Of a DNA stretch of 32,329 bases, positions 252 to 30,567 are shown one piece after another; positions within the stretch are counted from its first letter, which is position 1, and each line of letters starts with the position of its first letter. The stretch is from the sequence record SRR9188677_79. One strand, written 5' to 3'. Position numbers and translations under genes: made by a program. The notes beneath the pieces are model-generated. The model was given only the letters and a program-made list of their open reading frames with translations, searched no databases and was not told the origin of the DNA.

Positions 252-1889
252 TTGATTTCACTTATTAATTCGATACAATTGGATCCCAACCCGCTCACTT
301 TGTCTGGCACCATCGATTGCGGCCCGATATGCCAAATCAGCCATGTCCATGCTCCGGTTCAGCAAGCCGGGATCGCTGATCAGGTTACGGCGTTCTTAAC
401 CAATATCCTCAGTACTGCCGACTGGCCAGCACGTTGGAATTGTGGCGTCTGGTCGGATTTTCACGGCTGGTTATACATCATTTCCGACCTGCTTATCTGG
501 TTCGCATACTTTCTGATTCCTATTTTTTTGGTTAAACTTTTATTAAACAGAAAGGATTTTCCTTTTCCCAGAATAATCTGGTTATTCGGTGCTTTTATCA
601 TTTTGTGTGGAATGACGCACTTTATCGACGCCATCATCTTCTGGGTTCCTTTGTACCGCCTTAGTGCGCTTATCCGATTTTTGACAGCAGCTGTGTCCAT
701 TATAACCGTTTACGGATTGTACAAGACACTACCAAGTGTCTTGTTACTACGTTCTGTTAAGGAACTTGAACACGAAATCAACGAACGCCGCCTGGTGGAA
801 GAAAAGCTGGCAGCCAGTGAGTTTTTGCTTTCAGAAGCCGGTTACGTCGGCAGGGTTGGTGGCTGGGAATATGATTTGGCTACCAACAAGTTTCAATGGT
901 CAAAAACGGCTTTTGATATTTATGAAACAACGGATGAGAATTTCATGGATGCCAATACCGCAATCCGTTTTTTTGTTGAACCACATCAGAAAATCATGAA
1001 CCAGGCATTTAAGCAGGCTTGTAAAAATGGCGTTGGCTGGGACCTCGAACTACAAATGATTACAGCTAAGGAAAATATAAAGTGGGTTCGTTATTACGGA
1101 AAACCTTTGTTTGACCAGGACGGAAAACTAATTAAGCTAAGAGGTGTTTTGATGGACATTGACAAATACAAAACGAACGAAATTGATCTTCACAAGTCTA
1201 ATGAGTTGATGAATCAGCAGAACGCTCAGCTTAAGAGCTTTACACATATACTTTCTCACAACTTACGAAACCATAACAATAACATTTCCATGCTATGTGA
1301 TTTCGTAGATGAAGGTACACTTGACCCGAATAACGCAGAGCTATTTCAAAAAATCAAAAATGTTTCGGTGAATCTAAGTACTACGCTCGACGACCTTTCA
1401 CAGATTATAAAGGTCAGGGAAAGTTACCTTCCAGGTGAAATGCTATCATTCAAAACAGTAGCTGAAAAAGTGATTGGTATTCTGGAAGTCGCATTGAAAG
1501 TAAGTGATGCAGTCGTTGATCTGGACTTTGAAGAGGAGACAGTATGGTTTCCAAATATTTATATGGAAAGTATCATTATGAATCTTGTTTCAAACGGCAT
1601 AAAATATAGAAAAGAGGAAATCCCACTTCATATTTCACTCAAAACCTATGTAAATGAAAACCAGGAAAAGGTTTTAGAATACTCAGACAACGGAATAGGA
1701 ATAGATATGGAATTGCATGGCAATAAAATTTTTGGATTGTATAAGACATTTCACCAGCATAAAGACGCACATGGAGTCGGTCTGTTTTTAATAAAAAATC
1801 AAATCGAATCACAAGGAGGTAAAATAGAGGTGGAAAGCAGGCCTAATGAAGGAGCAACGTTTAAAATCACGTTCAATGAAAAAAATTGA
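252..1889 (+). CDS. Sensor histidine kinase with N-terminal ETR1-type ethylene-binding transmembrane domain, PAS/PAC, HisKA and HATPase
   Basis: SDLLIWFAYFLIP and FGAFIILCGMTH match ETR1 SDFFIAIAYFSIP and FGAFIVLCGATH; PAS-like GRVGGWEYDL...WS; H-box SHNLRNH; N box NLVSNGIKY; G boxes DNGIG and GVGL. Start is TTG and uncertain, with no in-frame ATG before residue 121. Confidence 0.9.
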   Translation: MISLINSIQLDPNPLTLSGTIDCGPICQISHVHAPVQQAGIADQVTAFLTNILSTADWPARWNCGVWSDFHGWLYIISDLLIWFAYFLIPIFLVKLLLNRKDFPFPRIIWLFGAFIILCGMTHFIDAIIFWVPLYRLSALIRFLTAAVSIITVYGLYKTLPSVLLLRSVKELEHEINERRLVEEKLAASEFLLSEAGYVGRVGGWEYDLATNKFQWSKTAFDIYETTDENFMDANTAIRFFVEPHQKIMNQAFKQACKNGVGWDLELQMITAKENIKWVRYYGKPLFDQDGKLIKLRGVLMDIDKYKTNEIDLHKSNELMNQQNAQLKSFTHILSHNLRNHNNNISMLCDFVDEGTLDPNNAELFQKIKNVSVNLSTTLDDLSQIIKVRESYLPGEMLSFKTVAEKVIGILEVALKVSDAVVDLDFEEETVWFPNIYMESIIMNLVSNGIKYRKEEIPLHISLKTYVNENQEKVLEYSDNGIGIDMELHGNKIFGLYKTFHQHKDAHGVGLFLIKNQIESQGGKIEVESRPNEGATFKITFNEKN

Positions 1890-2280
1890 TCTTCTATGCA
1901 TGATAGATGATGATCTGGTTTACACTTTTCTTTTGAGAAAAATAATTGAGAAAGCGGAAGTCGCTGAAAAATTAATCTTCTTCAAAAATGGACTGGAAGC
2001 CCTTGATTATCTAAAAGCCAACGAGGGAAACACCGACAATTTGCCGGCCATAATACTATTGGACATTAACATGCCAATCCTGGATGGGTGGCAGTTTATG
2101 GATGGTTTTGCAGATTTATATCCTTCTTTGGTAAAAAATATCACAATTTACATGACCAGTTCTTCCTATGAAGATGAGGACTACAACCGGGCGATGTCGA
2201 CAAAACATGTCGAAGATTTCGTCCGTAAACCTGTTCAGGTAAAAGTGCTTAGGGAGTTAATTGATAAGTTGGATGAGTAG
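1876..2280 (+). CDS. Single-domain response regulator (receiver only), likely cognate of the upstream kinase
   Basis: IDDD acidic pocket, LLDINMP phosphoacceptor, TSS and KP motifs; ATG at 1876 overlaps the kinase end by 14 nt and is preferred over 1846. Confidence 0.9.
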   Translation: MKKIDLLCMIDDDLVYTFLLRKIIEKAEVAEKLIFFKNGLEALDYLKANEGNTDNLPAIILLDINMPILDGWQFMDGFADLYPSLVKNITIYMTSSSYEDEDYNRAMSTKHVEDFVRKPVQVKVLRELIDKLDE

Positions 2281-2469: not shown

Positions 2470-5346
2470 ATGACGCGCCTATCACGTTTGATCATCCCTT
2501 TGTTATCCATTGCAGTTCTGGCATTTGATGGTAATGTCTCTGCTCAGGAAGTCAAACTTAAAACGGTAACTGCCCAGGATACTGGAAAGTTTGACCGTGA
2601 TTATGCCCTGGAAGCGACCATGCTTGGTTTTTTTGCGAAAGACGGGACGCGCAATCCAACATTGAAAGCCAATAAGGGAGAGCGTGTCCGGATCAAAATT
2701 ACCAATGGCGAGATCATGACCCACGATATTGCTTTGGAAAAACTTGGAATAAAGACAAAAACGATTCTGGAAAAGGGTGCCAGCACGAGCCTTACTTTCA
2801 AGGCGGAGCAAAGTGACACGTACTTCTGTTCAGTTCCGGGTCATCGCGCTGCTGGTATGGTTGGGAATTTTGAAGTTGTGGAAGGTGAAATCTCCAATGC
2901 GACCGTGGCCGGACAATTGCCAGCGAAGGATGGTCAGCCGTTAAATTTGAATTTTGAAACAGGTACACTCAAAGATTGGACCGCTACCGGTGATGCTTTT
3001 ACCAATCCTCTTTTCAACGCGGATCCATCTCCGGTGCATGAAAAAGAAATGAATATTGGTTTTGAAGGGAAATACTTCCTAAGTAGCGGAGGCACTGTTA
3101 ACTACATGCAAACTGGAACACTAACCTCCGTTCCTTTTAAGGTGACACAGCCATTTGCTGCCTTTCGCGTATCAGGCGGAGCTTTGCTGGATACCCGTGT
3201 TGAGCTGGTTTTAGCTGGTACGGATAAAGTGATTTACCACATAACCGGACAAGGAAGAGCGACGTTGCAACCTGCTGTGGTGGATTTGCAGGCATATTTG
3301 AACAAAGAAATTTTCATCCGGATCGTCGACAACGAAACCGGAATTTCGCAGATTCCATACATAGCCAATGACAAATGGGCACATATCAATTTCGACGAAT
3401 TTAAGTTCTACCCAAGTCGGCCTAACTTTCCAAATGAGCTCAACCAAAAGGATATCATCATTTTACCTCCGTTAGATCCCGTTCTGAACGCAGGACTTTC
3501 TGGTGTTGAAGCTGCGAAAGCGATGACGTTGCCCAAAGGTTTCAAAATAACATTAGCTGCTGCTGAGCCGGATATTATCCGTCCTATCAGCTTTACAATT
3601 GATCCAAAAGGAAGGCTTTGGGTTGTGGAAGGACATACTTATCCGGTTCCGGCACCAGAAGGTCAGGGAAGAGACCGTATTCTCATTTTCGAGGACACGG
3701 ATGGAGACGGAACGCTGGACAAAAAGAAAGTTTTCACCGAAGGATTGAATCTTGTAAGTGGTATCGAGGTAGGAATGGGTGGCGTTTGGCTGGGAGCTGC
3801 GCCTTACTTAATATTTATTCCAGCCGATTTTACCAACGATAAACCGACCGGTCCTCCGCAAAAACTGCTGGATGGCTGGGGTTTGGACGATACGCATGAG
3901 GTATTGAACAACCTGAGGTGGGGACCTGACGGCTGGTTATATGGAACACATGGCGTATTCACGCATTCGAATGTTGGTAAGCCCGGCGCGCCGGATTCGG
4001 AAAGGACGAAGATAAACGCTGGCGTGTGGCGGTTCCATCCTACAACGCATAAGTTTGAAGTTTTTGCGGAAGGTTCGAGTAATCCATGGGGAATCGATTT
4101 CAACGATTATGGTCATCCGTTCATCACTGTTTGTGTGATCCCGCACATGTATCATGTCGTACAAGGAGCGCGTTACCAGCGTCAGGCGGGAAAGCATTTC
4201 AATCCTTATACATATGACGATATCAAAACCATCGCCGATCACGTGCATTGGGTAGGGGAGCGTGGACCGCATGCAGGTAACTTCCGGTCGGCTTCGGCTG
4301 GCGGCGGTCATGCACATGCGGGTGCGATGATCTATCTGGGCGGAGATACCTGGCCAAAAGAATACCGCAACGAAATTTTCATGAACAATATCAATGGTGC
4401 CAGGCTGAATATTGATCATTTTGAACGTGAGGGATCCGGTTACGACGCTACGCACAAGCCTGACTTCCTTGCTATGAATGACTCCTGGTCACAATGGCTG
4501 AACATGAAATACGATCCAAGCGGATCAGTCTACGCTATCGATTGGTACGACAAGAATCAGTGCCACAGCCCTAATCCGGATGTTCACAACAAAACGATGG
4601 GCCGCATTTTCAAGATTACGAATGAGAATGATAAATGGGTGAAGGTAGATCTTACGAAGGCCTCGGATATGGAGCTTGTTAATTACCAGCTTAGTAATAA
4701 CGATTGGTATGTAAGGCAGGCAAGGACGATTCTTCAGGAACGTGGCCCAAATAAAAAGGTACAAAAAGCATTGAAAGATATTCTCGCAAAGAATCCTGAT
4801 CCGACACGCAAACTCCGGGCGCTATGGGCTTTGCATGTAACAAAAGGATTGACCGAAAAAGACCTGACGGATTTGCTTTTTTCCGACAGTGAGTATGTAA
4901 GAAGTTGGGCGATACAATTGCTGACCGAAGACAAAAAAGTATCGCCTGAAACGCTTAAACTTTTTGCAGAACTGGCGAAAAAAGATAATTCTGCTTTGGT
5001 TAGGCTGTATTTGACATCCGGAATGCTGAGGTTAGACCCGAGCCAAAGGTGGGACGTTATGGATGCGTTGGTACAAAAGTCGGAAGATATCAACGACCAC
5101 AACTTGCCATTGATGGTGTGGTATGCATCGGAACCGCTTGCTGCCCTGGACATGAAACGCGCTCTATTAATGGCCGAAAAATCAAAATTTCCAAAAATAC
5201 TTCCTTACATGATCCAGCGGGTTGGTGCAATTGGTACCGATGAATCTAAAAAGGTTTTGAAAGATCTGAACGAGAAACTGGGTAAGATGGATTCACACAT
5301 GCATCATGAAAGTCAGATGTTGATTGGTAAAGTGTTAAATGAATAG
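2470..5346 (+). CDS. Exported multidomain protein: type-1 copper cupredoxin, beta-sandwich-like domain, PVC-type putative dehydrogenase beta-propeller and HEAT-like repeats
   Basis: Signal peptide ending VSA|Q; H85...C120-x4-H125-x4-M130 (YFCSVPGHRAAGM); LPKGFKITL, D-x-KGRLWVVE, EDTDGDG, WGPDGWLYG, NPWG-x-DF and GRIFKI typical of the PVC-type family; helical RALWAL/VRSWAIQLL repeats; no CxxCH. Confidence 0.8.
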   Translation: MTRLSRLIIPLLSIAVLAFDGNVSAQEVKLKTVTAQDTGKFDRDYALEATMLGFFAKDGTRNPTLKANKGERVRIKITNGEIMTHDIALEKLGIKTKTILEKGASTSLTFKAEQSDTYFCSVPGHRAAGMVGNFEVVEGEISNATVAGQLPAKDGQPLNLNFETGTLKDWTATGDAFTNPLFNADPSPVHEKEMNIGFEGKYFLSSGGTVNYMQTGTLTSVPFKVTQPFAAFRVSGGALLDTRVELVLAGTDKVIYHITGQGRATLQPAVVDLQAYLNKEIFIRIVDNETGISQIPYIANDKWAHINFDEFKFYPSRPNFPNELNQKDIIILPPLDPVLNAGLSGVEAAKAMTLPKGFKITLAAAEPDIIRPISFTIDPKGRLWVVEGHTYPVPAPEGQGRDRILIFEDTDGDGTLDKKKVFTEGLNLVSGIEVGMGGVWLGAAPYLIFIPADFTNDKPTGPPQKLLDGWGLDDTHEVLNNLRWGPDGWLYGTHGVFTHSNVGKPGAPDSERTKINAGVWRFHPTTHKFEVFAEGSSNPWGIDFNDYGHPFITVCVIPHMYHVVQGARYQRQAGKHFNPYTYDDIKTIADHVHWVGERGPHAGNFRSASAGGGHAHAGAMIYLGGDTWPKEYRNEIFMNNINGARLNIDHFEREGSGYDATHKPDFLAMNDSWSQWLNMKYDPSGSVYAIDWYDKNQCHSPNPDVHNKTMGRIFKITNENDKWVKVDLTKASDMELVNYQLSNNDWYVRQARTILQERGPNKKVQKALKDILAKNPDPTRKLRALWALHVTKGLTEKDLTDLLFSDSEYVRSWAIQLLTEDKKVSPETLKLFAELAKKDNSALVRLYLTSGMLRLDPSQRWDVMDALVQKSEDINDHNLPLMVWYASEPLAALDMKRALLMAEKSKFPKILPYMIQRVGAIGTDESKKVLKDLNEKLGKMDSHMHHESQMLIGKVLNE

Positions 5347-9257: not shown

Positions 9258-11195
9258 TTGTCCACCCTGACTCTGAAATATCTTATGTTGTTTTACAAAA
9301 CAAAAATTAGGGTTTTACTGACCATATTAACTTTTGTAGCGTCATCAAACAAAGTCGCTGGACAACAGAAAGTAATTGATTCTTTAAAGGTGGTTTTAGC
9401 TGCCAACCCAAAGCAAAACACACTGAGGGTAGATCGGCTAAATCAATTGGCCTACAAAAATTTTTCATTCAACGTTAAAAATCTCAATGAGTACAGCCGC
9501 GCGGCTTTGCTGTTAGCAAAAAAACTGAACTACAAGAAAGGAGAGGCCGAGTCATACAAGAATCTTGCCCTTTCATATATGCTTATTCACGGCGATGTCA
9601 CTGCTCTTGAATGTCTCAATCAATCGTTAAAACTTTACATTTCTTTAGATGATACGACAAATGTTGCAGGAGTAACCAATTACATCGGCTGCTTTTATGC
9701 GGCAATTAAGGACTATAACCACGCATTACCTTATTTTTTGAAGTCAGAGAAAATTTTAGGTGATCGCAAACACATTCTTCTTTTAACGATTCTCTCCAAC
9801 ACCGGTTCCTGTTATGAAGACTTAAAGCAATATGCCAAAGCAGACAATTATTACAAGAAGGTTGAGGTTCTGGCAGACAGTATCAAGGATTACGACTGGA
9901 TTGTTACCTCATATTACCAGACAGCTTCACTTTTGTTTGTGAAAAAAATGTATAAAAATGCATTGGGCACCTGTCAGGAAGGACTTGCTATTGTTGAAAA
10001 GCAAGACGTGAGTCCGCGCGAAGAGCAGACATTGAATATGCTCGCAGGTGACATTCATTATGCGTTGAAAGAATATTCTGAGGCCCGGGAATATTATGTA
10101 ACAAGCGAAAAGCTTGCTAAGCAAATGAACAGTCGCGAAAAAATGGCAGCTGTTTACCATAAGTATCACCAACTGGATTCCATCGCGGGTGATCATTCGA
10201 GCGCCTTGGCGAACTTTAAGCGATACCAGGTCATCACCGACAGCTTGATCAACCAGAACAAGAATGAAATTGTAGCGCTCTATAAGGTAAAGTTTGCAGT
10301 GGAAGAACAGGCGGACCTAAGCAATTTGTTGTCTCTGGAAAGGAAGTCGGATCAAAAAATGATTTTCTACCAACGCTGGATACTTTTAATCGCCCTTGGC
10401 AGCTTACTAATTATTGGGTTCGCCTTTTTGAGAATGAAAAAACTAAATCATAAGCTGCTCACGCTGAATCACCAGATAGCATCCCAAAACACGCAGTTGG
10501 AAGAATTGAATGGCATAAAGAACAAGATATTTTCGGTGATAGCACACGATCTGCGAAACCCTTTCGCTCAATTTATTACGTTGCTGGATATGGTGGAAAA
10601 TCAGATGATCCAGCCGGATGACCTCGTCGAGGTAATTCCTTCTGTCAACAAAACTACCAGGCAGACGATGGAAATGATGGATAATCTGCTGGTGTGGTCA
10701 AAAAGTCAGATGAATGGATTTCGGGTCAATCATACAGATACAAACCTTGAAGAGTTGGTGGATTACACCTTGGGCAACCTGCAAATTTCTATAAATGACA
10801 AAGAACTGCATATTGAGACCAGTCGCCTGGCGAGTACAACTGCATGGGCAGACAAGGATATGATTTCTATAGTTTTGAGAAACTTGCTGTCCAACGCCAT
10901 AAAATTTACCCCGGCACGGGGAAGTATAGAAATCGAATCATATAGTGAAGAAAAGTCCGTAGGGTTAATTATCCGCGACTCCGGAGTTGGAATGTCAGAC
11001 GACCAGCTGAACAAATTATTTTCTTTTGATATAAGGAGTACCCAGGGAACTGCCAACGAAGTCGGCACAGGCCTCGGGTTGAAAATATGTTACGATTTGT
11101 TGGAATTGAACAGCGGTCAAATAAAGGTAGAAAGTAGCATTGGCGAAGGAAGTTGTTTCTTTATTACCGTTCCCGCGCGGGAACGACTAGCCTAA
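9258..11195 (+). CDS. Tetratricopeptide-repeat sensor histidine kinase (periplasmic TPR, one TM, HisKA, HATPase)
   Basis: TPR-like helices (NYIGCFY...ALPYF, SNTGSCY...ADNYY); TM WILLIALGSLLIIGFAFL; AHDLRNP; NLLSNAIKF; DSGVGM; GTGLGL. Start uncertain (TTG 9258 or ATG 9285). Confidence 0.9.
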   Translation: MSTLTLKYLMLFYKTKIRVLLTILTFVASSNKVAGQQKVIDSLKVVLAANPKQNTLRVDRLNQLAYKNFSFNVKNLNEYSRAALLLAKKLNYKKGEAESYKNLALSYMLIHGDVTALECLNQSLKLYISLDDTTNVAGVTNYIGCFYAAIKDYNHALPYFLKSEKILGDRKHILLLTILSNTGSCYEDLKQYAKADNYYKKVEVLADSIKDYDWIVTSYYQTASLLFVKKMYKNALGTCQEGLAIVEKQDVSPREEQTLNMLAGDIHYALKEYSEAREYYVTSEKLAKQMNSREKMAAVYHKYHQLDSIAGDHSSALANFKRYQVITDSLINQNKNEIVALYKVKFAVEEQADLSNLLSLERKSDQKMIFYQRWILLIALGSLLIIGFAFLRMKKLNHKLLTLNHQIASQNTQLEELNGIKNKIFSVIAHDLRNPFAQFITLLDMVENQMIQPDDLVEVIPSVNKTTRQTMEMMDNLLVWSKSQMNGFRVNHTDTNLEELVDYTLGNLQISINDKELHIETSRLASTTAWADKDMISIVLRNLLSNAIKFTPARGSIEIESYSEEKSVGLIIRDSGVGMSDDQLNKLFSFDIRSTQGTANEVGTGLGLKICYDLLELNSGQIKVESSIGEGSCFFITVPARERLA

Positions 11196-20795: not shown

Positions 20796-22982
20796 TCAAT
20801 TTTGATCGGGCTTTAAAGGACATTTAAGTACGATAACCGATCGCCCGGCTACTTTAATGGAATCACCGGAAACCAGGCTTACACCATCGTCTCCTACAAA
20901 ACCGTCATCGGTATCAAGTACCTTTTGCCAGGCCGTTTTGCATTCCTCTGCCGGCAATACATAGTCAAGTGCTTCGTGATGGGCGTTGAAGATGAGGTAA
21001 AAGTTATCGTCTATGATCTTTTTCCCGTCATAATTTACACACCTGATTCCATCCCCTGCAAGGAAAACGCCAAGGGATTTGGCATAACCGTGGGTCCAGT
21101 TCTCTTGCGACATTTCAATTCCTTCGGGTAAGTACCAGATAATATCCGTCCGGCCGGAACCTTGTACAGGTATGCCTTGAAACCAGCGCCTTCTCCTGAA
21201 AGTCGGATGTTTTTTACAGAGTTTTATAACTCCTTTTGTGAAGGCCAAAAGTTTTTGATCTGCACTTGCCCAGTCTACCCATGAAATTTCATTATCCTGG
21301 CAATAGGCATTGTTATTACCCTGCTGCGTACGGCCAAACTCATCTCCTGCGACAAGCATGGGAACCCCCTGAGAAAGAAACAAGGTGGTTAAGAAGTTTC
21401 TTTTTTGCTTGTTACGAAGTGCAATAATCTCCTGGTTGTCAGTTGGGCCTTCCTCTCCGCAGTTCCAGGAACGGTTGTGATTTTCACCATCGCGATTGTC
21501 GTCGAAGTTGGCCTCATTGTGCTTCTGATTATATGAAACCAGGTCGTTCAACGTAAAACCGTCATGCGCAGTAACGAAGTTAATACTCGCAGTTGGCCTG
21601 CGGTAGCCACCTTTATACAAGTCAGGGCTTCCTGTGAACCGCATGGCAAATTCGGCCAGCTTGCTTTCTGCCCCGCGCCAATAATCCCTGATGCAGTCCC
21701 GGTATAGGCCGTTCCATTCAGCCCAGCCGGGAGGGAATTTCCCGACCAGATATCCGGCTTCACCTACATCCCATGGTTCGGCGATGAGTTTCACCTGAGA
21801 AATAATCGGATCCTGATGAATGATGCTAAAAAATGCACTCAGATTATCAGTGTCATGCAAAGTTCTTGCAAGCGTAGAGGCTAGGTCAAACCGGAATCCG
21901 TCTATATGCATTTCGGTGATCCAGTAACGGAGGCTATCCATAATGAGACCCAGAACGAACGGAAGTCTTACGTTCAAGGTATTCCCCGTACCCGTATAAT
22001 CCTGGTAATAACGCTGGTTGTCAAACGCAAGCCGGTAGTAGGAAACGTTGTCAATGCCTTTGAAAGAAAGGGTAGGACCCAGATGATTCCCTTCGGCTGT
22101 ATGGTTGTAAACTACATCCAATATCACCTCAATACCCGCTTTGTGGAGTTCCTTTACGAGATTTTTGAATTCATTTACTTGTTCACCCATTTTACCTGTG
22201 CTGCTATACCGCGCATCAGGGGCGAAGTAGCCAAGCGTATTGTATCCCCAATAGTTCGTAAGGCCCTTCTCAACAAGATGACGATCGGCGACGAAATGAT
22301 GAATTGGCATTATTTCCAGTGCCGTAATGCCCAGGTCTTTTAAATATGATATGGCTGCCGGATGAGCCATTCCGGCATAGGTTCCACGTATTTCTTCCGG
22401 AATTTCTGGATGCAGTTTTGTAAATCCTTTTAAATGCGCTTCATAAATAATCGTATCGCTATACTGGATCTTTGGTGGCTTGTCGCCTTCCCAATCAAAA
22501 TCAGTATCTACAACGATGGATTTCGGAATAAAAGGAGCGCTGTTTTTATCACTGTAACTCAAGTCCTCCTCTGGATTGCCAATCTGGTAGGCAAACAACG
22601 CGTCATCCCACTTAATGATCCCGGTAACTGCTTTGGTGTAGGGATCAATGAGTAATTTTGAGGGATTGAACCGCAAACCATTCTGCGGCTCGTAAGGGCC
22701 ATGCACTCTGTAGCCGTATAATTGGCCGGGTTTTAGTTCCGGCAAATACACATGCCATATATGGTGTGTAACCTCTTCTATTTTTATAATTGCACTTTCA
22801 GTAGCGTCATCTGCTTTGTCGAATAAGCAGAGCTCTACACCTGTGGCGTTCTCTGCAAATATTGCAAAGTTTACTCCTTCCCCTGTCCAGGTTGACCCAA
22901 GCGGGTATGGACTTCCAGGCAGCACTACCATTTTTTCGTTTTCCGGGGATTCTAAAAGTTCGTTTTGTAATAGCTCTTCCAT
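20796..22982 (-). CDS. glgX: Glycogen debranching enzyme (isoamylase, GH13)
   Basis: GSPYPLG, NYWGY, DVVYNHTAEG, DGFRFDLA, AEPWD, HDGFTLNDLVSYN, GNNNAYCQDN. Confidence 0.96.
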   Translation of the reverse strand: MEELLQNELLESPENEKMVVLPGSPYPLGSTWTGEGVNFAIFAENATGVELCLFDKADDATESAIIKIEEVTHHIWHVYLPELKPGQLYGYRVHGPYEPQNGLRFNPSKLLIDPYTKAVTGIIKWDDALFAYQIGNPEEDLSYSDKNSAPFIPKSIVVDTDFDWEGDKPPKIQYSDTIIYEAHLKGFTKLHPEIPEEIRGTYAGMAHPAAISYLKDLGITALEIMPIHHFVADRHLVEKGLTNYWGYNTLGYFAPDARYSSTGKMGEQVNEFKNLVKELHKAGIEVILDVVYNHTAEGNHLGPTLSFKGIDNVSYYRLAFDNQRYYQDYTGTGNTLNVRLPFVLGLIMDSLRYWITEMHIDGFRFDLASTLARTLHDTDNLSAFFSIIHQDPIISQVKLIAEPWDVGEAGYLVGKFPPGWAEWNGLYRDCIRDYWRGAESKLAEFAMRFTGSPDLYKGGYRRPTASINFVTAHDGFTLNDLVSYNQKHNEANFDDNRDGENHNRSWNCGEEGPTDNQEIIALRNKQKRNFLTTLFLSQGVPMLVAGDEFGRTQQGNNNAYCQDNEISWVDWASADQKLLAFTKGVIKLCKKHPTFRRRRWFQGIPVQGSGRTDIIWYLPEGIEMSQENWTHGYAKSLGVFLAGDGIRCVNYDGKKIIDDNFYLIFNAHHEALDYVLPAEECKTAWQKVLDTDDGFVGDDGVSLVSGDSIKVAGRSVIVLKCPLKPDQN

Positions 22983-23016
22983 CGTCTTTCATAACTTGAT
23001 TATAAAATTCGACCCA

Positions 23017-23031
23017 CAAATTCCCGTGCCA
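23017..23031 (-). promoter_or_regulatory. sigma54-like motif TGGCAC-N5-TTTG upstream of glgX
   Basis: Reverse complement TGGCACGGGAATTTG, 34 nt upstream of the start. Confidence 0.55.
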
Positions 23032-23069
23032 GCAGTCCTTGTATGGATTTCTCGTCTTAACTCTTGAAA

Positions 23070-23084
23070 TGGTATGGTTTTTGA
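23070..23084 (+). promoter_or_regulatory. sigma54-like motif TGGTAT-N5-TTGA upstream of the DUF748 gene
   Basis: Read directly; back-to-back with the glgX site. Confidence 0.5.
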
Positions 23085-23123
23085 CAAGCGGCATTGTAGA
23101 AATCATTACGAAATACGCACTGC

Positions 23124-24308
23124 ATGGGAGCTGCTCCAAGAAGTCATAAAATGCGAAAAGCGGGTTGGTATTTTCTAGCCTTCATTATTTTGGTAATCGT
23201 AGTCAGACTGATTTTACCGTATGTTGTTTTGCATCTGGTGAATAAAAACCTGGCTACAATGAATGGATACTATGGGCATGTCGATGACATCGACTTGGCG
23301 ATAATACGCGGTGCTTATCAGATAGACAGCATTTACCTAAATAAAAAAGATACTGTAACAAGCAAACAGACCCCCTTTTTTGCATCCAGGCAAATCGATC
23401 TTTCTGTGGAATGGAAGTCGCTTTTTAAAGGTTCTATTGTCGGAGAAGTTGTGTTAAACGAGCCCATGCTCAGGTTTACAAAGGACAAAGTGGAGCCGAA
23501 GGATGTTGCCAGGGATTCGTCGGACTTGAAGGAATTGCTCGACGATTTCATGCCGTTACGGATCAACCGTTGTGAAATTAACAATGGAAGAATTAAATAT
23601 ATTGATGAGAGTTCGAAGCCGAAAGTCGATGTAGAGATGACGAATGTTCACCTACTGGCGCAAAATTTAAGGAACAGTTATGATTCATCAGCGGTGCTAC
23701 CAGCCACCATCGATGCCAAAGCATCCGTTTACGAAGGAACCCTGACCTTCGATGCAAAGGCAAATCCTCTGGCCGATTCTCCTACTTTTGACATGAGCGC
23801 GGAGTTGAAAAATACAAATTTGGTGAAGCTTAATGACTTTTTTAAGGCTTATGCAAAGGTAGATGTCAATAAAGGAAGGTTTGGGCTTTATACCGAAGTA
23901 GCGGCCAAAGACAAGCAATTTACGGGTTATGTCAAACCCATTATTCAGGATCTGGATGTGCTTGGGCATGAAGATAGGAAAGATAATATTTTTCAAAAAG
24001 CCTGGGAAGGTCTTGTAGGAGTAGTGGGAGAAGTTTTTCAAAATCAAAGGAAGGATCAGTTGGCAACAAAAATTCCTTTTCAGGGAAGCCTGGACGATCC
24101 AAAGGCAAATATTTGGCTTACATTAACCCGCGTATTGCAAAACGCCTTTATTCATGCCATTCAACCTTCTCTTGACAATGAAATAAATTTGGGTTCAGTG
24201 AACGTTAAAAAGGAGGAAAAGAAGACTTTTTTACAAAAGATATTCTCAAAAGACGGGAAGGACAAGAAAAATAAGAAAGAGGATAAAAAAAATAAGAAAA
24301 ACAAATAA
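23124..24308 (+). CDS. DUF748/AsmA-like membrane-anchored protein with Lys-rich C-terminal tail
   Basis: N-terminal TM anchor then YYGHVDDIDLAIIRGAY, GYVKP, ATKIPFQGSL, LQNAFIHA; alternative start ATG 23151. Confidence 0.8.
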   Translation: MGAAPRSHKMRKAGWYFLAFIILVIVVRLILPYVVLHLVNKNLATMNGYYGHVDDIDLAIIRGAYQIDSIYLNKKDTVTSKQTPFFASRQIDLSVEWKSLFKGSIVGEVVLNEPMLRFTKDKVEPKDVARDSSDLKELLDDFMPLRINRCEINNGRIKYIDESSKPKVDVEMTNVHLLAQNLRNSYDSSAVLPATIDAKASVYEGTLTFDAKANPLADSPTFDMSAELKNTNLVKLNDFFKAYAKVDVNKGRFGLYTEVAAKDKQFTGYVKPIIQDLDVLGHEDRKDNIFQKAWEGLVGVVGEVFQNQRKDQLATKIPFQGSLDDPKANIWLTLTRVLQNAFIHAIQPSLDNEINLGSVNVKKEEKKTFLQKIFSKDGKDKKNKKEDKKNKKNK

Positions 24309-24323
24309 TCAACATACATCATT

Positions 24324-24521
24324 ATGGGCGATCCACAATTTAAGGAAGGAGACTGGGTAAAAGACAAAAACGGAACTCAGGGAATGACGGTGGTCAGTTA
24401 CATTAAAGATACCGGAAACTCAGCATATACAGGTGAAGTGAGGTGCCGTTATAAAAATTCGGTGGGTGAGGAGGTGGAAACCAATTTCTGGGAGGCAGAT
24501 CTGGTGAAACTTAACTCGTAA
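24324..24521 (+). CDS. YodC/DUF2158-like small protein
   Basis: FKEGDWV...GMTV...VRCRY...FWEADL pattern, 65 aa. Confidence 0.65.
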   Translation: MGDPQFKEGDWVKDKNGTQGMTVVSYIKDTGNSAYTGEVRCRYKNSVGEEVETNFWEADLVKLNS

Positions 24522-24575
24522 GGGTACAGTTTTGTTTTTTAACTTGTACTGCTTTTTTAATTTAAACAAAATAAA

Positions 24576-25127
24576 ATGGGAAACTCCGGCGTAACATACA
24601 ATTTACCGGGAACGGTTTCTGGTGTGTTTTTTACAAAAAAAGACGCAGATGCTGCTTATAATTCTCTCCTGAAAAGGGGGCACACGGAGGATGATATTTC
24701 CATTCTGATGTCGGACGAAACGCTCAGTACCCACAAGGCGGTATATACCGATGACGATCTGGTTGATCCTAAAAAAGAGGTTGACAACACATTGGAACGG
24801 GCCAAGGACGTTATTGCAAGTGCAATCATCTCTATTACAACGATGGTTTCTCTGCCGGGCTTAGGCATTGCCATTTCAAATACGTTATTCAGGAAGGTTA
24901 CCAGAACAATTGAACATCATGATGGCGAGAAGGCGGTCGGCCATGTGCTTGGCTCGACAATCCCCGACGATCATACAGAATCTTACAGGGATAGCATGAG
25001 GGAAGGCGGTATTATCCTCAGTGTGGACCCCAGGAATGCTGACGAAAAGCGCGCTATCGTAAAAGATTTCAAAGCACACAATGGCCACGACATCCTTGGC
25101 GATGATGGCTACACGGAACTAGATTAG
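24576..25127 (+). CDS. General-stress-protein-like (YflT-type) hypothetical protein
   Basis: VSGVF...ADAAYNSL..RG...DDISILM at the N-terminus, LPGLG and YRDSMREGGIILSV. Confidence 0.65.
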   Translation: MGNSGVTYNLPGTVSGVFFTKKDADAAYNSLLKRGHTEDDISILMSDETLSTHKAVYTDDDLVDPKKEVDNTLERAKDVIASAIISITTMVSLPGLGIAISNTLFRKVTRTIEHHDGEKAVGHVLGSTIPDDHTESYRDSMREGGIILSVDPRNADEKRAIVKDFKAHNGHDILGDDGYTELD

Positions 25128-25146
25128 AGACAAGAAGAGGTTTAGA

Positions 25147-26133
25147 ATGAACAAACATGATATTATAGTTATAGGATCATCCGCAGGGGGTGTTTTTGCT
25201 TTGAAGGAATTGGTTGGCTCGTTGCCGGAAGACTTTCAGGCGGCGATTTTTATTGTTCAGCATGTGGCTCCAAATTTTCCAAGTTTTTTGCCTTCGATTT
25301 TAAGTAAGGAGGGGAAATTGAAAGCATCCCATCCCGAAGACGGAGAGCAAATCCGTCCGGGCCATATTTACATTGCCCCTCCGGATTTGCATATGTTAAT
25401 TGAAAACGATTGCGTGCTTGTAAGAAGAGGCCCTAAGGAAAATCGTTTCAGGCCATCGATCGATGCACTTTTCCGGTCTGCTGCTTACAATTATGGCTCA
25501 CGGGTAATCGGCGTAATTCTTACCGGGATGCTGGATGACGGTTCCTCGGGTATGTGGTCTGTTAAGCGGCTGGGCGGGATTGGTATCATTCAGGCGCCCG
25601 AAGATGCCAAGTATCCGTCCATGCCACAAAGCGTGCTTGACTATGTCGAGGTGGATTACAATGTTCCTTTGTCTGAATTGGGAATGCTACTCAGTAAACT
25701 CGTAAAAGCACCGGTACTTGAGATGACAACTAACGGATCTCCCGATTTAGAGAGAATGAAGGTGGAAATTGATACTGCGGCTCAAAGAAACGCATTTGAA
25801 GAAGGTATTATGGAAATTGGAGAACTTTCGCCCTTAACTTGCCCTGAGTGCAAAGGCGTACTTCTGAAGTTGAGAGAAGGCAATTTGATCCGGTACAGGT
25901 GCCACACAGGACATTCTTATCAGGCAACATCATTACTATCTGGCATTACGGAAGCGGTAGAGATGAAACTCTGGGAAGCGCTTAAAAATCTGGAAGAAAA
26001 GGTAATGCTTCTGGAAGATACAGCCAAAGAGAGTAAATTAAATGACAACGTAACAGCATCCGATGATTTAATTGAAAAGGCGGAAATTGCCAGGAAGCGT
26101 GCACAGAAGCTTCGGGAGTTTTTATTCGAATAG
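25147..26133 (+). CDS. cheB: Stand-alone CheB-type methylesterase with C-terminal putative Zn-binding domain
   Basis: GSSAGG (Ser), VQH (His), LTGMLDDG (Asp), RPSIDALFRSAA; C-terminal CPECKG...YRCHTGH; no receiver domain. Confidence 0.88.
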   Translation: MNKHDIIVIGSSAGGVFALKELVGSLPEDFQAAIFIVQHVAPNFPSFLPSILSKEGKLKASHPEDGEQIRPGHIYIAPPDLHMLIENDCVLVRRGPKENRFRPSIDALFRSAAYNYGSRVIGVILTGMLDDGSSGMWSVKRLGGIGIIQAPEDAKYPSMPQSVLDYVEVDYNVPLSELGMLLSKLVKAPVLEMTTNGSPDLERMKVEIDTAAQRNAFEEGIMEIGELSPLTCPECKGVLLKLREGNLIRYRCHTGHSYQATSLLSGITEAVEMKLWEALKNLEEKVMLLEDTAKESKLNDNVTASDDLIEKAEIARKRAQKLREFLFE

Positions 26134-26272
26134 TTTGAAAATCAGCTTTTCAACCAATTCATTCACGAATTGTTTGGGCGTATATACCTTAACCGTACGC
26201 GATAGTCGTGATGATTGAACTTACCGAAACCTTTTTAGAATGAGAATGATGAATGCGTTGCTTATTCGAACA

Positions 26273-26743
26273 TCATAAAGCGTATTGAAGCTGTCCGTCC
26301 ATGTAAATGCTTTTTGTTAACGCTTTACTTAAATTTCTGTTAATGTCTTCTATTTTGACAAGATGATCTGCAAATATTGAGTTGGCTTCAAGTGTCAGGA
26401 CGTTTTTCTGGCTCAAAAGATTTTTATAAATTCTAATCGCTCTTTGTTCTTGTTCCTGTAGCATAAACGCGATGGATGTTTTGTCTTCCCAGGGAAATAT
26501 AAAATCCTTTCTTAAATTCTTAATCCCCTGAATATCGCCATCGCTCAAAGAAGATTTGACCTGGTCGTATATCCATTGAATTTCTTTTTTGAATAACAAT
26601 GAACTGCTGAAACCCTGGCTGCAAGTTCTGCGAAGGGTTCCCAGATCTTCAAATCCCATAGCCTGCTTGTACAGGTTCTCCCTGCGTAAATGAATGTTCC
26701 ACAAATTTACAATATTGAGTACGAAAGGATGAAGATCTTCCAT
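26273..26743 (-). CDS. Hypothetical protein, possibly a ferritin-like four-helix bundle
   Basis: Helical pattern RENLYKQA...EQEQRAIRIYKNLL...DHLVKI resembles PA2169/DUF2383-type proteins; weak. Confidence 0.55.
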   Translation of the reverse strand: MEDLHPFVLNIVNLWNIHLRRENLYKQAMGFEDLGTLRRTCSQGFSSSLLFKKEIQWIYDQVKSSLSDGDIQGIKNLRKDFIFPWEDKTSIAFMLQEQEQRAIRIYKNLLSQKNVLTLEANSIFADHLVKIEDINRNLSKALTKSIYMDGQLQYAL

Positions 26744-26793
26744 GATGCCTGAAGTGGGTTGTAGAACTTTATAGTATTTGTAAAATCAATTTG

Positions 26794-26808
26794 ACAATTA
26801 TTATGCCA
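26794..26808 (-). promoter_or_regulatory. sigma54-like motif TGGCAT-N5-TTGT
   Basis: Reverse complement TGGCATAATAATTGT, 50 nt upstream of the start at 26743. Confidence 0.6.
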
Positions 26809-26859
26809 GGTATTACTAATAAAATCTTACTTAATACGAATGGCCGGGAAGACAGATTA

Positions 26860-28488
26860 TCAAGTCTTTATTCTTATCAATACCCCTTCATCACCACTCA
26901 AAGTCATGGTTCCCTCTACACTTGATCCGATCCTTTCTGTTTCTGTGCTGAGAATTATTTCCCCAGTGTAGACATCCGCCGGCTTGAAATAACAGGGTCT
27001 GTGACTTAAATTCAGCAGGATCAAAAATTTGCCGGAATAATGCGTGCGAGTATAAGCGAGCATTTGCTTATCCGAATAAACGGGGCTATAAGTTCCGACC
27101 TGCAAAGCCGGCTCGTGCTTTCTTATTTCAATTAGCTTATGATAAAATGAAAGCATTGAATAAGCATTGTCCTTCTCCGTTTCCACATTAATCCGACGGA
27201 AATTATCGGGCAATCTTAACCACGGCTGACGATTGGAGAATCCGGCGTAGATTCCGTCATTCCATTGCATCGGTGTCCGGCTCGGATCGCGGCTTACATT
27301 TAAATCGGGCATGTTGAGCCCTTGCGGATCCACAATTTCGTCCATAGGGATTGGCACATCGCGCATTCCGATTTCGTCGCCGTAATAAACCGTGGGAGTT
27401 CCCCGCAGCGTTAGCAGCAACATGGCTGCGACTCGCGCCTGTGACCTGCCTACACGGCTGGAAATTCTGGGTTGGTCGTGGTTTCCTAACACCCAGTTTG
27501 GCCAGCCTTCATCTGGCAAAGCACCCTCGTATTCGTCTATAATAGCCGCGATTTTCAAGGAATCCCATGCAGAAGTAAGTAGCTGAAAATTGAATGGCAA
27601 ATGTGCACCCTTTTTGTCGTGACCATAATAAGTAACAAGCTTATGGATCGGAAGATATATCTCGCCGATCAGTACACGCTCGTCATACTGGTCCGTAACC
27701 CGCCTCATCATACGCACAATGTCGTGCACTTCCGGCTGGTCGGTTGAATACACAGGGCTGTAATGGTCATATATCAAATCGTTCGCATGAAACCAGGAAT
27801 CTGGCGAAACGGGATTATTGCGTAGTTGCAGATCCTTGATCATGTGCCACATCACGTCCACACGAAAGCCGTCGATTCCTTTATCAAGCCAGAAAGTCAT
27901 CACTTTTAGCATCGCCTCCTGCACTTCCGGATTACGCCAGTTCAGGTCAGGCTGTTCTTTCAGAAATGCATGGTAATAGTATTGTTCAGTTGTTTCATCC
28001 CATTCCCATGCATGCCCGCCGAATACGCTGAGCCAGTTGTTGGGAAGTTCGCCATTCTCTTTCGCATCCTGCCAAATGTACCAGTCGCGTTTAGGGTTAT
28101 CCCGTGAAGATTTAGATTCTAAAAACCAGGGATGCTGATCGGAGGTGTGATTAGGGACAAGATCCAGGATGAGCTTCATGCCGCGACGATGAACTTCTTC
28201 CAAAAGATCGTCAAAATCGTCCATGGTCCCGAACAAAGGATGGATTCCGGTATAGTCCGAAATGTCGTAGCCGAAGTCAGCCATAGGCGACGGGAAGATT
28301 GGAGAAAGCCAAATACAGTCGACGCCAAGCCATTGCAGGTAATCCAGCTTGCTTAAAATTCCTCTGAGATCGCCAATTCCATCATCATTTGAGTCCCGAA
28401 ATGAACGTGGATAAATTTGGTATATCACCCCATTCTTCCACCAAACATATTTTTGCTCTTGTGTTTCAATGGCTTTTGGATCACTCAT
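26860..28488 (-). CDS. GH13 alpha-glucosidase (oligo-1,6-glucosidase-like)
   Basis: YQIYPRSF, DLVPNH, QPDLN, GFRVDV (nucleophile followed by Val, typical of alpha-1,6-active members), IGEIY, LGNHD. Confidence 0.92.
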   Translation of the reverse strand: MSDPKAIETQEQKYVWWKNGVIYQIYPRSFRDSNDDGIGDLRGILSKLDYLQWLGVDCIWLSPIFPSPMADFGYDISDYTGIHPLFGTMDDFDDLLEEVHRRGMKLILDLVPNHTSDQHPWFLESKSSRDNPKRDWYIWQDAKENGELPNNWLSVFGGHAWEWDETTEQYYYHAFLKEQPDLNWRNPEVQEAMLKVMTFWLDKGIDGFRVDVMWHMIKDLQLRNNPVSPDSWFHANDLIYDHYSPVYSTDQPEVHDIVRMMRRVTDQYDERVLIGEIYLPIHKLVTYYGHDKKGAHLPFNFQLLTSAWDSLKIAAIIDEYEGALPDEGWPNWVLGNHDQPRISSRVGRSQARVAAMLLLTLRGTPTVYYGDEIGMRDVPIPMDEIVDPQGLNMPDLNVSRDPSRTPMQWNDGIYAGFSNRQPWLRLPDNFRRINVETEKDNAYSMLSFYHKLIEIRKHEPALQVGTYSPVYSDKQMLAYTRTHYSGKFLILLNLSHRPCYFKPADVYTGEIILSTETERIGSSVEGTMTLSGDEGVLIRIKT

Positions 28489-28530
28489 AAGGCTGCTATT
28501 TCACTGTTTATACAAAAAATTTTCACGAGC

Positions 28531-28545
28531 TAAAAAATCAAGCCA
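28531..28545 (-). promoter_or_regulatory. sigma54-like motif TGGCTT-N5-TTTA upstream of the alpha-glucosidase gene
   Basis: Reverse complement TGGCTTGATTTTTTA, 42 nt upstream of the start. Confidence 0.45.
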
Positions 28546-28591
28546 GTATAGGATTAAACATGAAATTGTTAAGAAATTAATGATATCGCGA

Positions 28592-28606
28592 TGGCATAAT
28601 TTTTAA
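28592..28606 (+). promoter_or_regulatory. sigma54-like motif TGGCAT-N5-TTAA upstream of treZ
   Basis: TGGCATAATTTTTAA, 62 nt upstream of the ATG. Confidence 0.55.
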
Positions 28607-28668
28607 AGAAGTGGGGAAAAAAATTTCACCATATCTGTCGCATAGCCGATTGACTTAGTCCACAAAAG

Positions 28669-30504
28669 ATGAAATTTATTGGTGCCAACTATTCTGAAAG
28701 CCGCTGTGAATTTAGTGTTTGGGCCCCTGAAAAGGAGTCGATCTCTTTGTTAGTGGTGCACACAGGGGAGAAAATTGAGATGGAGAAAGACGAGGCTGGC
28801 TATTTTTATGTAACCCTGGAAAACGTTCCGGCAGATTTGCAGTATAAGTTTGTGCTTGAAAATTCAGACGAAGCATATCCTGATCCCGCGTCCCAATTCC
28901 AGCCGGAAGGTGTACACGGGCCATCACAAGTTGTGGATCATCAGGCTTATGCCTGGGAAAATACATCCTGGACCGGCATTCCGCTGAAAGAGCTCATTTT
29001 TTACGAGCTGCATGTAGGGACATTTACGACCGAAGGTACTTTTGAAGCCATTATTCCCAAATTGGATGGTCTTGCAGATGTTGGTATCAATGCGATTGAA
29101 CTCATGCCCGTGTGTCAGTTTCCCGGAACCCGAAACTGGGGTTACGACGGCGTATTTCCATATGCCGTTCAGAACTCTTATGGCGGACCGGAACAATTGA
29201 AAAAGCTGGTAGACGCAGCCCACGGCAAGGGAATCGCTGTTTTTCTGGATGTTATTTTCAACCACATCGGGCCGGAAGGCAATTACTTTCCAATATTTGG
29301 GCCCTATTTCACCGCTACTTACTGCACTCCCTGGGGAAATGCGATCAATCTCGACGGCGCCTGGTCCGATGGTGTGCGTGACTATTTTGCCAATACCATT
29401 TTTCACTGGTACGGAAACTATCATATCGACGGATTACGCGTAGATGCCGTGCACATGATGTTTGATAGTGGCGCAGTCCATTTTTGGGAGCTGGTGAATA
29501 GCAGGCTGAATCAATACAGACAGCAACTAGGAAGAGATTTTTACCTGATCGCTGAGTGTGACAATAACACTCCGAGAGTTGTAAAAGCTCCGGAGTACGG
29601 AGGGTGGGGCTTCGACGGACAATGGCTGGACGATTTTCATCATGCACTTTATGTATTGCTGGATCCGGCGGGTGCTGACCGGTATGAGGATTTTGGGCAA
29701 ATGGAGCAACTCGCGAAAGCATACACCGATGGTTTCGTGCACAGTGGCGAGTATGTAAAGTTCCGCAAAAGGAAACATGGCTCATCTTCCGTTGGCCTAC
29801 CCGGGGAAAAATTCGTGATTTTCAATAGTAATCATGATCAGGTCGGAAACCGGGTACACGGAGAAAGGCTGAGTATGCTGGTCGATTTTGAGCGGCAGAA
29901 AATTGCAGCTGCGGCGATTCTGCTGGCTCCGTATTTACCGTTACTATTTATGGGGGAGGAATTCGCCGCTGATTCTCCGTTCTTTTATTTCGTAGGCCAC
30001 TCCGATGAAAATCTTATCAGGATGGTGGTTGAAGGGAGGCGAAAAGAGTTTGAAAATTACAAATGGGATGCCGATCCGCCGAATCCTCAGGACGAGGCTA
30101 CGTTTGAGCGATCCAGGTTGGATTGGAGCAAGAGAAATGAGGGTTCCCATCAGATCATGCTCAATTGGAATAAGGCACTCATCGCATTAAGACGTTCAAA
30201 TCCTGCCTTGCAGAATTTTAATAAAAACGATGTGCGGGTAACTCTGTTTGGAGAACGGGGATTTGTTTTGCACAGGAGAAGCGATGACGAAAATCACGAG
30301 CTGCTATGCATTTTCAATCTTGGTGAAGAGGTTTTGTCGTGGCTGCTACCTGCGAAAAAGCAGCGATGGAATAAAGTGATTGATTCAAAAAAGAAGGTTT
30401 GGATGGAAAACGGCGAAGGCTTTGATTTCGCAGATATCATGAACGGAGGTGATTTACTTCAAGTTTCAGGGGTAAGTCTGGTCGTTTATGAGGGTGAAGT
30501 ATAA
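28669..30504 (+). CDS. treZ: Malto-oligosyltrehalose trehalohydrolase
   Basis: FSVWAP, PDPASQFQPEGVHGPS, YELHVGTF, WGYDG, DGLRVDAVH, NHDQVGNR, PLLFMGEE. Confidence 0.95.
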   Translation: MKFIGANYSESRCEFSVWAPEKESISLLVVHTGEKIEMEKDEAGYFYVTLENVPADLQYKFVLENSDEAYPDPASQFQPEGVHGPSQVVDHQAYAWENTSWTGIPLKELIFYELHVGTFTTEGTFEAIIPKLDGLADVGINAIELMPVCQFPGTRNWGYDGVFPYAVQNSYGGPEQLKKLVDAAHGKGIAVFLDVIFNHIGPEGNYFPIFGPYFTATYCTPWGNAINLDGAWSDGVRDYFANTIFHWYGNYHIDGLRVDAVHMMFDSGAVHFWELVNSRLNQYRQQLGRDFYLIAECDNNTPRVVKAPEYGGWGFDGQWLDDFHHALYVLLDPAGADRYEDFGQMEQLAKAYTDGFVHSGEYVKFRKRKHGSSSVGLPGEKFVIFNSNHDQVGNRVHGERLSMLVDFERQKIAAAAILLAPYLPLLFMGEEFAADSPFFYFVGHSDENLIRMVVEGRRKEFENYKWDADPPNPQDEATFERSRLDWSKRNEGSHQIMLNWNKALIALRRSNPALQNFNKNDVRVTLFGERGFVLHRRSDDENHELLCIFNLGEEVLSWLLPAKKQRWNKVIDSKKKVWMENGEGFDFADIMNGGDLLQVSGVSLVVYEGEV

Positions 30505-30567
30505 CATGTAAACAAAATAATTGCAGTGCAGGACCGCAAAAAATAGTACTCAACTAAAATTTAAATA

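Follow-up and report, generated by a model that had tools for sequence, protein, structure and literature searches.

The stretch of DNA analysed here, called the window below, comprises 32,329 nucleotides (nt) of sequence record SRR9188677_79. Close to its start lie two overlapping genes on the plus strand, one for a sensor histidine kinase with an ETR1-type ethylene-binding domain at its N-terminal end and one for a receiver-only response regulator (Table 1). A preliminary description, made from the letters of the sequence, had proposed that this pair is an ethylene-receptor two-component system in a Bacteroidota genome. The kinase frame is open and intact. We number its residues from the TTG at 252, the first codon of the open reading frame (ORF), unless model numbering is stated; model numbering is 9 lower. 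The annotated starts of Dyadobacter relatives (535-537 amino acids, aa) line up with the second in-frame TTG, at 279. Thus, the true protein probably has 536 aa, and the residue numbers of the preliminary description, while right for the 252 ORF, are probably 9 too high. The second gene had been described as a receiver-only regulator that overlaps the kinase. The overlap was found, and Response_reg is the only Pfam family in the protein, but the first ATG of its ORF, at 1846, is probably not the true start. From that ATG the ORF overlaps the kinase end by 44 nt and from the ATG at 1876 by 14 nt. The overlap is 14 nt in relatives, which makes 1876 the probable start and 134 aa the probable length. 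A promoter and terminator scan did no better than shuffled sequence (12 vs. 7.2 ± 2.9 and 4 vs. 2.5 ± 1.7, respectively).

Table 1. Features of the kinase-regulator pair, with positions in the window. AF2, AlphaFold2; DHp, dimerisation and phospho-acceptor.
Feature	Position	Strand	Basis or remark
Sensor histidine kinase gene	252..1889	+	ORF from TTG 252, 545 aa; probable start TTG 279, 536 aa
Predicted periplasmic N-terminal tail	279..458	+	AF2 model, motif counts in relatives
ETR1-type ethylene-binding domain, three transmembrane helices, residues 71-164	462..743	+	PF25487, AF2, AzoEtr1 alignment
D79 codon (= ETR1 D25, AzoEtr1 D35)	486..488	+	Translation, AzoEtr1 alignment
C119-H123 codons, helix 2, predicted Cu(I) ligands (= ETR1 C65, H69)	606..620	+	AzoEtr1 alignment
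R142 codon, helix 3 (= ETR1 K91, AzoEtr1 K98; Lys to Arg)	675..677	+	AzoEtr1 alignment
PAS domain	855..1157	+	PAS_3 E 1.4e-7, residues 215-299; AF2 PAS fold
DHp helix pair	1161..1415	+	AF2; H336 (codon 1257-1259) in SHNLRN H-box
HATPase_c catalytic domain	1566..1880	+	PF02518 E 4.8e-16, residues 439-543
Receiver-only response regulator	1846..2280	+	144 aa from ATG 1846; more probably 134 aa from ATG 1876

Pfam places three families in the kinase, in the order ETR1_N, PAS_3 and HATPase_c. ETR1_N matches residues 71-164 far above chance level (profile positions 2-95 of 97; E 2.6e-32; 111.4 bits, cut-off 27). The preliminary description had read the cytoplasmic part as PAS-HisKA-HATPase without a GAF domain. 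This holds for PAS and HATPase_c and for GAF, which is absent from the kinase in Pfam at E ≤ 0.01 and in whose place AF2 puts a PAS fold. HisKA stays below the Pfam cut-off (E 0.072; 13.6 bits against 26.9), though a pair of DHp helices is modelled. H336 of the SHNLRN H-box aligns with the His of the H-box of AzoEtr1, the ethylene receptor of Azospirillum brasilense (BLASTP). Residues 313-541 align with solved kinases, the core matching bacteriophytochrome kinases. In the regulator, the receiver residues D21/D22, D73 (the phospho-acceptor, codon 2062-2064), T104 and K128 were read in the translation and agree with the receiver alignment. The closest solved relatives of the regulator are stand-alone receivers and include the phytochrome partners Rcp1 and RcpA (E about 1e-7). 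Judged by residues, the two proteins are a classical phosphotransfer pair, with the H-box His, the ATP-binding domain and the receiver Asp, Thr and Lys all present.

The residues required for ethylene binding in ETR1 of Arabidopsis are D25, Y32, I35, P36, I62, C65 and H69. We reached the ETR1 equivalences through AzoEtr1 as a validated reference, rather than by aligning the ETR1 and SynEtr1 (Slr1212 of Synechocystis sp. PCC 6803) sequences directly. A tblastn search with residues 55-170 against a plasmid collection resulted in 21 records, seven of them from Azospirillum. The plasmid record of A. brasilense Sp7 (L015) holds an ORF of 525 aa at 2914-4491 that we take as AzoEtr1; its length, its first residues, which are those encoded by the published cloning primer, and its D35, C75, H79 and K98 support this identity (PMC11819568). 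BLASTP aligns the kinase with AzoEtr1 at E 2e-27 and 24% overall identity (about 40% between the binding domains), without gaps through the three helices and at an offset of 44. All seven pairs in helices 1 and 2 are identical (D79/D35, Y86/Y42, I89/I45, P90/P46, I116/I72, C119/C75 and H123/H79). In helix 3 the pairs are R142/K98, T145/T101, S149/S105, T152/T108 and P161/P117, of which T, S, T and P are identical. AzoEtr1 D35, C75, H79 and K98 correspond to ETR1 D25, C65, H69 and K91, and AzoEtr1 carries all seven binding residues (PMC11819568). Together with the AzoEtr1 offset of 44, these equivalences reproduce the offsets to ETR1 claimed in the preliminary description, 54 for helices 1 and 2 and 51 for helix 3. 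A hand count on the translation also found D79, Y86, I89, P90, I116, C119, H123, R142, T145, S149, T152 and P161 at the positions given there. At the position of ETR1 K91, the Lys is replaced by Arg (R142) and the charge is preserved.

With residues 55-170 as query, a word-indexed search gave 754 candidates, of which 694 proteins reached E ≤ 0.001; the 120 of these 694 that were listed are referred to as close relatives. All 120 carry PF25487 in the precomputed Pfam column, the best of them has 78% identity, and those with names belong to Dyadobacter, Mucilaginibacter, Pedobacter and Daejeonella (Bacteroidota wherever named). The closest named full-length relative in species genomes is that of Dyadobacter frigoris (69% identity), and orthologues in named genomes range from 51 to 69%. 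A further set of 148 proteins consists of 147 new cluster representatives and one Pseudanabaena plasmid protein. The seven binding residues are all the same as in the kinase in 119/120 close relatives and in 132/148 of the further set. The D79 position is Asp in each of the 120, and the C119 and H123 positions are invariant in 268/268 proteins of the two sets. The R142 position is more variable, with 114 Arg and 6 Lys among the close relatives and 87 Arg, 49 Lys, 11 Leu and 1 Gln in the further set. One could suppose that the likeness of hydrophobic helices is due to chance, or that the gene has decayed. A general risk of spurious transmembrane alignment is all that speaks for this; it is excluded by the profile match, the full-length BLASTP match to AzoEtr1, the intact frame and the orthologues at 51-69% identity, and we attach practically no probability to it.

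ETR1_N was found in 21 of 401 evenly sampled Bacteroidota genomes, in 43/62 genomes of the genus of D. frigoris and in 0/14 control genomes. An exhaustive search of 1.84 billion cluster representatives yielded 7160 matches at E ≤ 1e-3, of which 3952 reached E ≤ 1e-10 and 256 reached E ≤ 1e-30. The domain is not rare; it defines a large bacterial family with thousands of members and is common in the D. frigoris genus. A short form of 382-418 aa, in which the ethylene-binding domain is joined straight to the kinase, occurs in the same genera (e.g., P0021, P0029, P0064). In some Bacteroidota genomes (e.g., G002) there are two or three ETR1_N proteins that differ in length, and one sampled Bacteroidota genome (G307) has three with the top profile scores (131-142 bits).

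An AF2 model of the 536-aa kinase was built from a 70-sequence alignment, with a mean predicted local distance difference test score (pLDDT) of 77.4 and a predicted template modelling score (pTM) of 0.38. The model has three long N-terminal helices (60-90, 97-122 and 126-156, model numbering; block pLDDT mostly 68-86). In the same numbering, residues 1-28 are disordered (pLDDT <50) and are followed by a short helix at 32-41; a linker helix (160-189), a PAS fold (193-293), the DHp helices (295-342 and 350-379) and the catalytic domain (387-531) come after the three helices. Sequence and model point to a membrane protein with a periplasmic N-terminal tail and a continuous helix that extends beyond helix 3 as a cytoplasmic coiled coil, with PAS, DHp and the ATP-binding domain after it. 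In the translation, Lys and Arg are abundant in the loop joining helices 1 and 2, whose charge contrasts with that of the acidic N-terminal tail; this fits a topology with the N-terminus outside. Some distant relatives (P0126, P0156, P0160, P0198) have an apparent cleavable signal peptide ahead of the conserved helix and the three-helix domain, and these starts likewise favour an outside N-terminus.

Two copies of residues 25-175 were also modelled as a homodimer. The score was 0.82, against 0.00 for the best of three controls, and passes a mark that 21/30 solved homodimers and 0/23 proteins solved as single chains reached. Contact agreement between runs was at least 88% and the pLDDT of the partner at least 84. 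A search of the PDB gave 0 sequence matches to the membrane domain at E ≤ 10, so the result is unlikely to be a remembered complex. In the predicted interface, helix 1 of one copy lies against helix 3 of the other and the Cys/His site is included; in model numbering, Arg133 (R142) contacts Asp70 (D79) of the partner copy. The modelling supports a homodimer through the membrane domain. An interface this extensive, and the position of PAS between the membrane domain and the kinase, could also be expected if the three helices were mainly a membrane anchor and dimerisation module and the true signal entered via the cytoplasmic PAS domain. We regard this as quite improbable. Many close relatives of 382-418 aa retain the membrane domain and the seven residues without a PAS domain (its absence was noted in relatives of 403-418 aa), which weakens the case for PAS as the input, and a mere anchor would not retain polar Asp, Cys, His and Arg in the membrane across 119/120 relatives.

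We think it likely that the two genes encode a two-component system that takes its input from a Cu(I)-dependent sensor of ethylene (a small alkene) of the ETR1/SynEtr1/AzoEtr1 kind; the analysis supports the reading of the preliminary description. At the level of sequence, every mark of such a receptor that could be examined is present, i.e., the ETR1_N profile, three membrane helices, the seven residues, the Cys and His copper ligands, and an intact kinase and receiver. By analogy with ETR1 (PMC10266040) and AzoEtr1 (PMC11819568), each subunit of the dimer would bind one Cu(I) through C119 and H123 in helix 2, and D79 of helix 1 would orient the His and pair with R142 of helix 3. Ethylene bound to the copper would shift helix 3, and the continuous linker helix would carry the shift to PAS and DHp, altering how far kinase or phosphatase activity prevails. 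Biofilm formation by A. brasilense is lowered by ethylene treatment as well as by disruption of the receptor (PMC11819568). Since ethylene and loss of AzoEtr1 have the same phenotype, ethylene probably inactivates the kinase. From H336, the phosphoryl group would pass to D73 of the receiver-only regulator, which, having no output domain, would act by protein contact on a partner. Likely targets of the regulator would be surface, biofilm or metabolic traits that are useful near plant roots or in ethylene-containing soil; the named relatives from soil- and plant-associated genera belong to Dyadobacter, Mucilaginibacter and Pedobacter.

Several points weigh against this reading. The K91R mutant of ETR1 is ethylene-hyposensitive (PMC10266040), so that affinity or output may differ here with R142. 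The low pTM of the full-length model makes the mutual placement of the domains uncertain. The PAS domain is possibly a second input. It is also conceivable that the fold and copper site of ETR1 are kept for a different signal, such as copper availability, the redox state of the periplasm or membrane, or another copper-binding ligand (carbon monoxide, other alkenes or isocyanides). Plant ethylene receptors respond to other unsaturated ligands too. The family is very large, as the 7160 cluster representatives at E ≤ 1e-3 indicate, and includes many bacteria without a known link to plants, while a handful of its members have been tested for ethylene. Moreover, this clade has Arg in place of the signal-transmitting Lys of ETR1 and an additional periplasmic tail whose Cys and His residues could bind metal. 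We nevertheless give a non-ethylene signal a minor, if appreciable, probability. The seven ETR1 ethylene-binding residues are strongly conserved (119/120 close relatives), and each tested member with these residues covered by the two papers cited here, namely ETR1, SynEtr1 and AzoEtr1, binds ethylene (PMC11819568; PMC10266040).

The N-terminal tail carries a C-x3-C motif (C23, C27), H31 and H33, a short amphipathic helix (residues 41-50) and a WPxRWxC motif that ends in C64. C64 is conserved in 120/120 close relatives and in 145/148 of the further set. Of the 119 listed relatives with WPxRWxC, 75 have a C-x(2-4)-C motif, often with a His nearby. This Cys-rich tail is the most conspicuous trait of the kinase and is specific to its clade. 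C64 lies at position 45 or later in 99/120 close relatives, 69 of which have C-x(2-4)-C upstream; in 123/147 more distant representatives C64 comes before position 45, and just 2 of these 123 have C-x(2-4)-C. Eight short-tailed distant examples start at or slightly before the amphipathic helix, and most distant relatives are without the tail and seem to start at or near the conserved FFxxLF helix. A more speculative idea, which we hold to be unlikely, is that the tail, as an addition of the Sphingobacteriia/Cytophagia clade, is a built-in site for the capture and loading of Cu(I), comparable to the plant route of RAN1 and a chaperone, and that D79 and R142 pair across the subunit interface and not within one subunit. 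In that case, helix 3 of one subunit would report ethylene bound in its partner.

The closest characterised system is AzoEtr1 (PLoS Genet 2025, PMC11819568). It shares with the kinase the three-helix binding domain, a PAS domain and a histidine kinase (525 vs. 536-545 aa), seven identical binding residues, and a downstream overlapping regulator of about 135 aa without an output domain. The pair described here is thus a further member of a catalogued Pfam family, in a layout that has already been described. The two systems differ in several respects. The host of AzoEtr1 is an alphaproteobacterium and that of the kinase a member of the Bacteroidota; AzoEtr1 has Lys in helix 3 where the kinase has Arg; and its tail before helix 1 is 29 residues long and lacks the C-x3-C stretch. 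Between the two regulators there is only weak similarity (22% identity, E 0.001). Ethylene binding and a phenotype are experimental for AzoEtr1, whereas the kinase is known from its sequence and from models.

ETR1 of Arabidopsis, and likewise ERS1, shares with the kinase the ETR1_N domain and the seven residues, with the helix-1 Asp and the Cu(I) ligands Cys and His of helix 2 among them. In plant receptors the membrane domain is followed by a GAF domain, and the receiver of ETR1 is fused to the rest of the protein, whereas the kinase has PAS and a separate receiver gene. In helix 3, ETR1 has Lys and the kinase Arg. Plant ethylene signalling proceeds via CTR1 and EIN2 rather than by phosphotransfer. 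A dimer, which is predicted for the kinase, is established for ETR1 (PMC10266040). SynEtr1 is a bacterial receptor with the same binding domain and with a histidine kinase that transfers phosphate to a response regulator; unlike what we propose for the kinase, it also senses light and acts via a DNA-binding regulator and a small RNA (PMC11819568). Our own cyanobacterial comparison is with uncharacterised plasmid-borne homologues, at 41-42% identity (tblastn against the plasmid collection). Several relatives are named 'sensor kinase Cph1' by JGI. Pairs of the Cph1/Rcp1 type resemble the present pair in their transmitter and receiver modules only, and the phytochrome PAS-GAF-PHY input of Cph1 is not present in the kinase.

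A review names proteobacteria and cyanobacteria among the holders of the domain (PMC7700396), and a study in PNAS compared 1,221 related sequences (PMC10266040). The preliminary description knew of no characterised ethylene receptor in Bacteroidota. Our literature search agrees in that it returned no paper on one, and the word ethylene does not appear in PMC13440311; Bacteroidetes may be listed as predicted holders in two surveys that lay outside that search, Lacey and Binder (2016) and Carlew (2020). If the protein binds ethylene, common soil- and root-associated Bacteroidota (Dyadobacter, in 43/62 genomes, as well as Mucilaginibacter and Pedobacter) would perceive the plant hormone directly, and experimental knowledge would reach past cyanobacteria and one alphaproteobacterium. 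Such a result would bear on how the root microbiome responds to plant stress signals. The concept itself would be unchanged, because the domain family and the exact layout have already been described. Being small and intact, the two-gene cassette lends itself well to binding assays and knock-outs.

At this locus, conservation of gene order is limited to the kinase and its regulator. In 8 of 10 related genome loci a receiver gene comes directly after the kinase, and any other neighbour is common to at most three of the ten. The two loci without an adjoining receiver gene are those of Pedobacter alpinus, with a short kinase that lacks PAS, and Fulvivirga. Downstream of the regulator, by 190 nt, is a gene (2470..5346, plus strand) for a protein of 958 aa with a plastocyanin-type copper-binding (cupredoxin) domain, DUF7133 and HEAT repeats. 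A copper link between this gene and the kinase was considered and rejected. None of the 10 related loci has a counterpart of this gene next to the kinase, and its copper domain is therefore taken as a coincidence.

The window starts with an AT-rich non-coding stretch ahead of the kinase ORF, and the remainder is ordinary chromosome with purL, a TPR kinase, a TetR regulator and a GH13 gene cluster. The TPR kinase (9258..11195, plus strand) is a second histidine kinase, with TPR repeats as its input and no adjoining receiver gene among the ORFs scanned. The gene at 25147..26133 (plus strand) encodes a protein of 328 aa in which residues 7-179 are a CheB methylesterase domain; a receiver domain was not detected in it, and no Pfam family matches its C-terminal half at E ≤ 1e-5. 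Four genes of the GH13 alpha-amylase family, two of them with CBM48, lie at 20796..32286, and this cluster suggests glycogen or trehalose metabolism.

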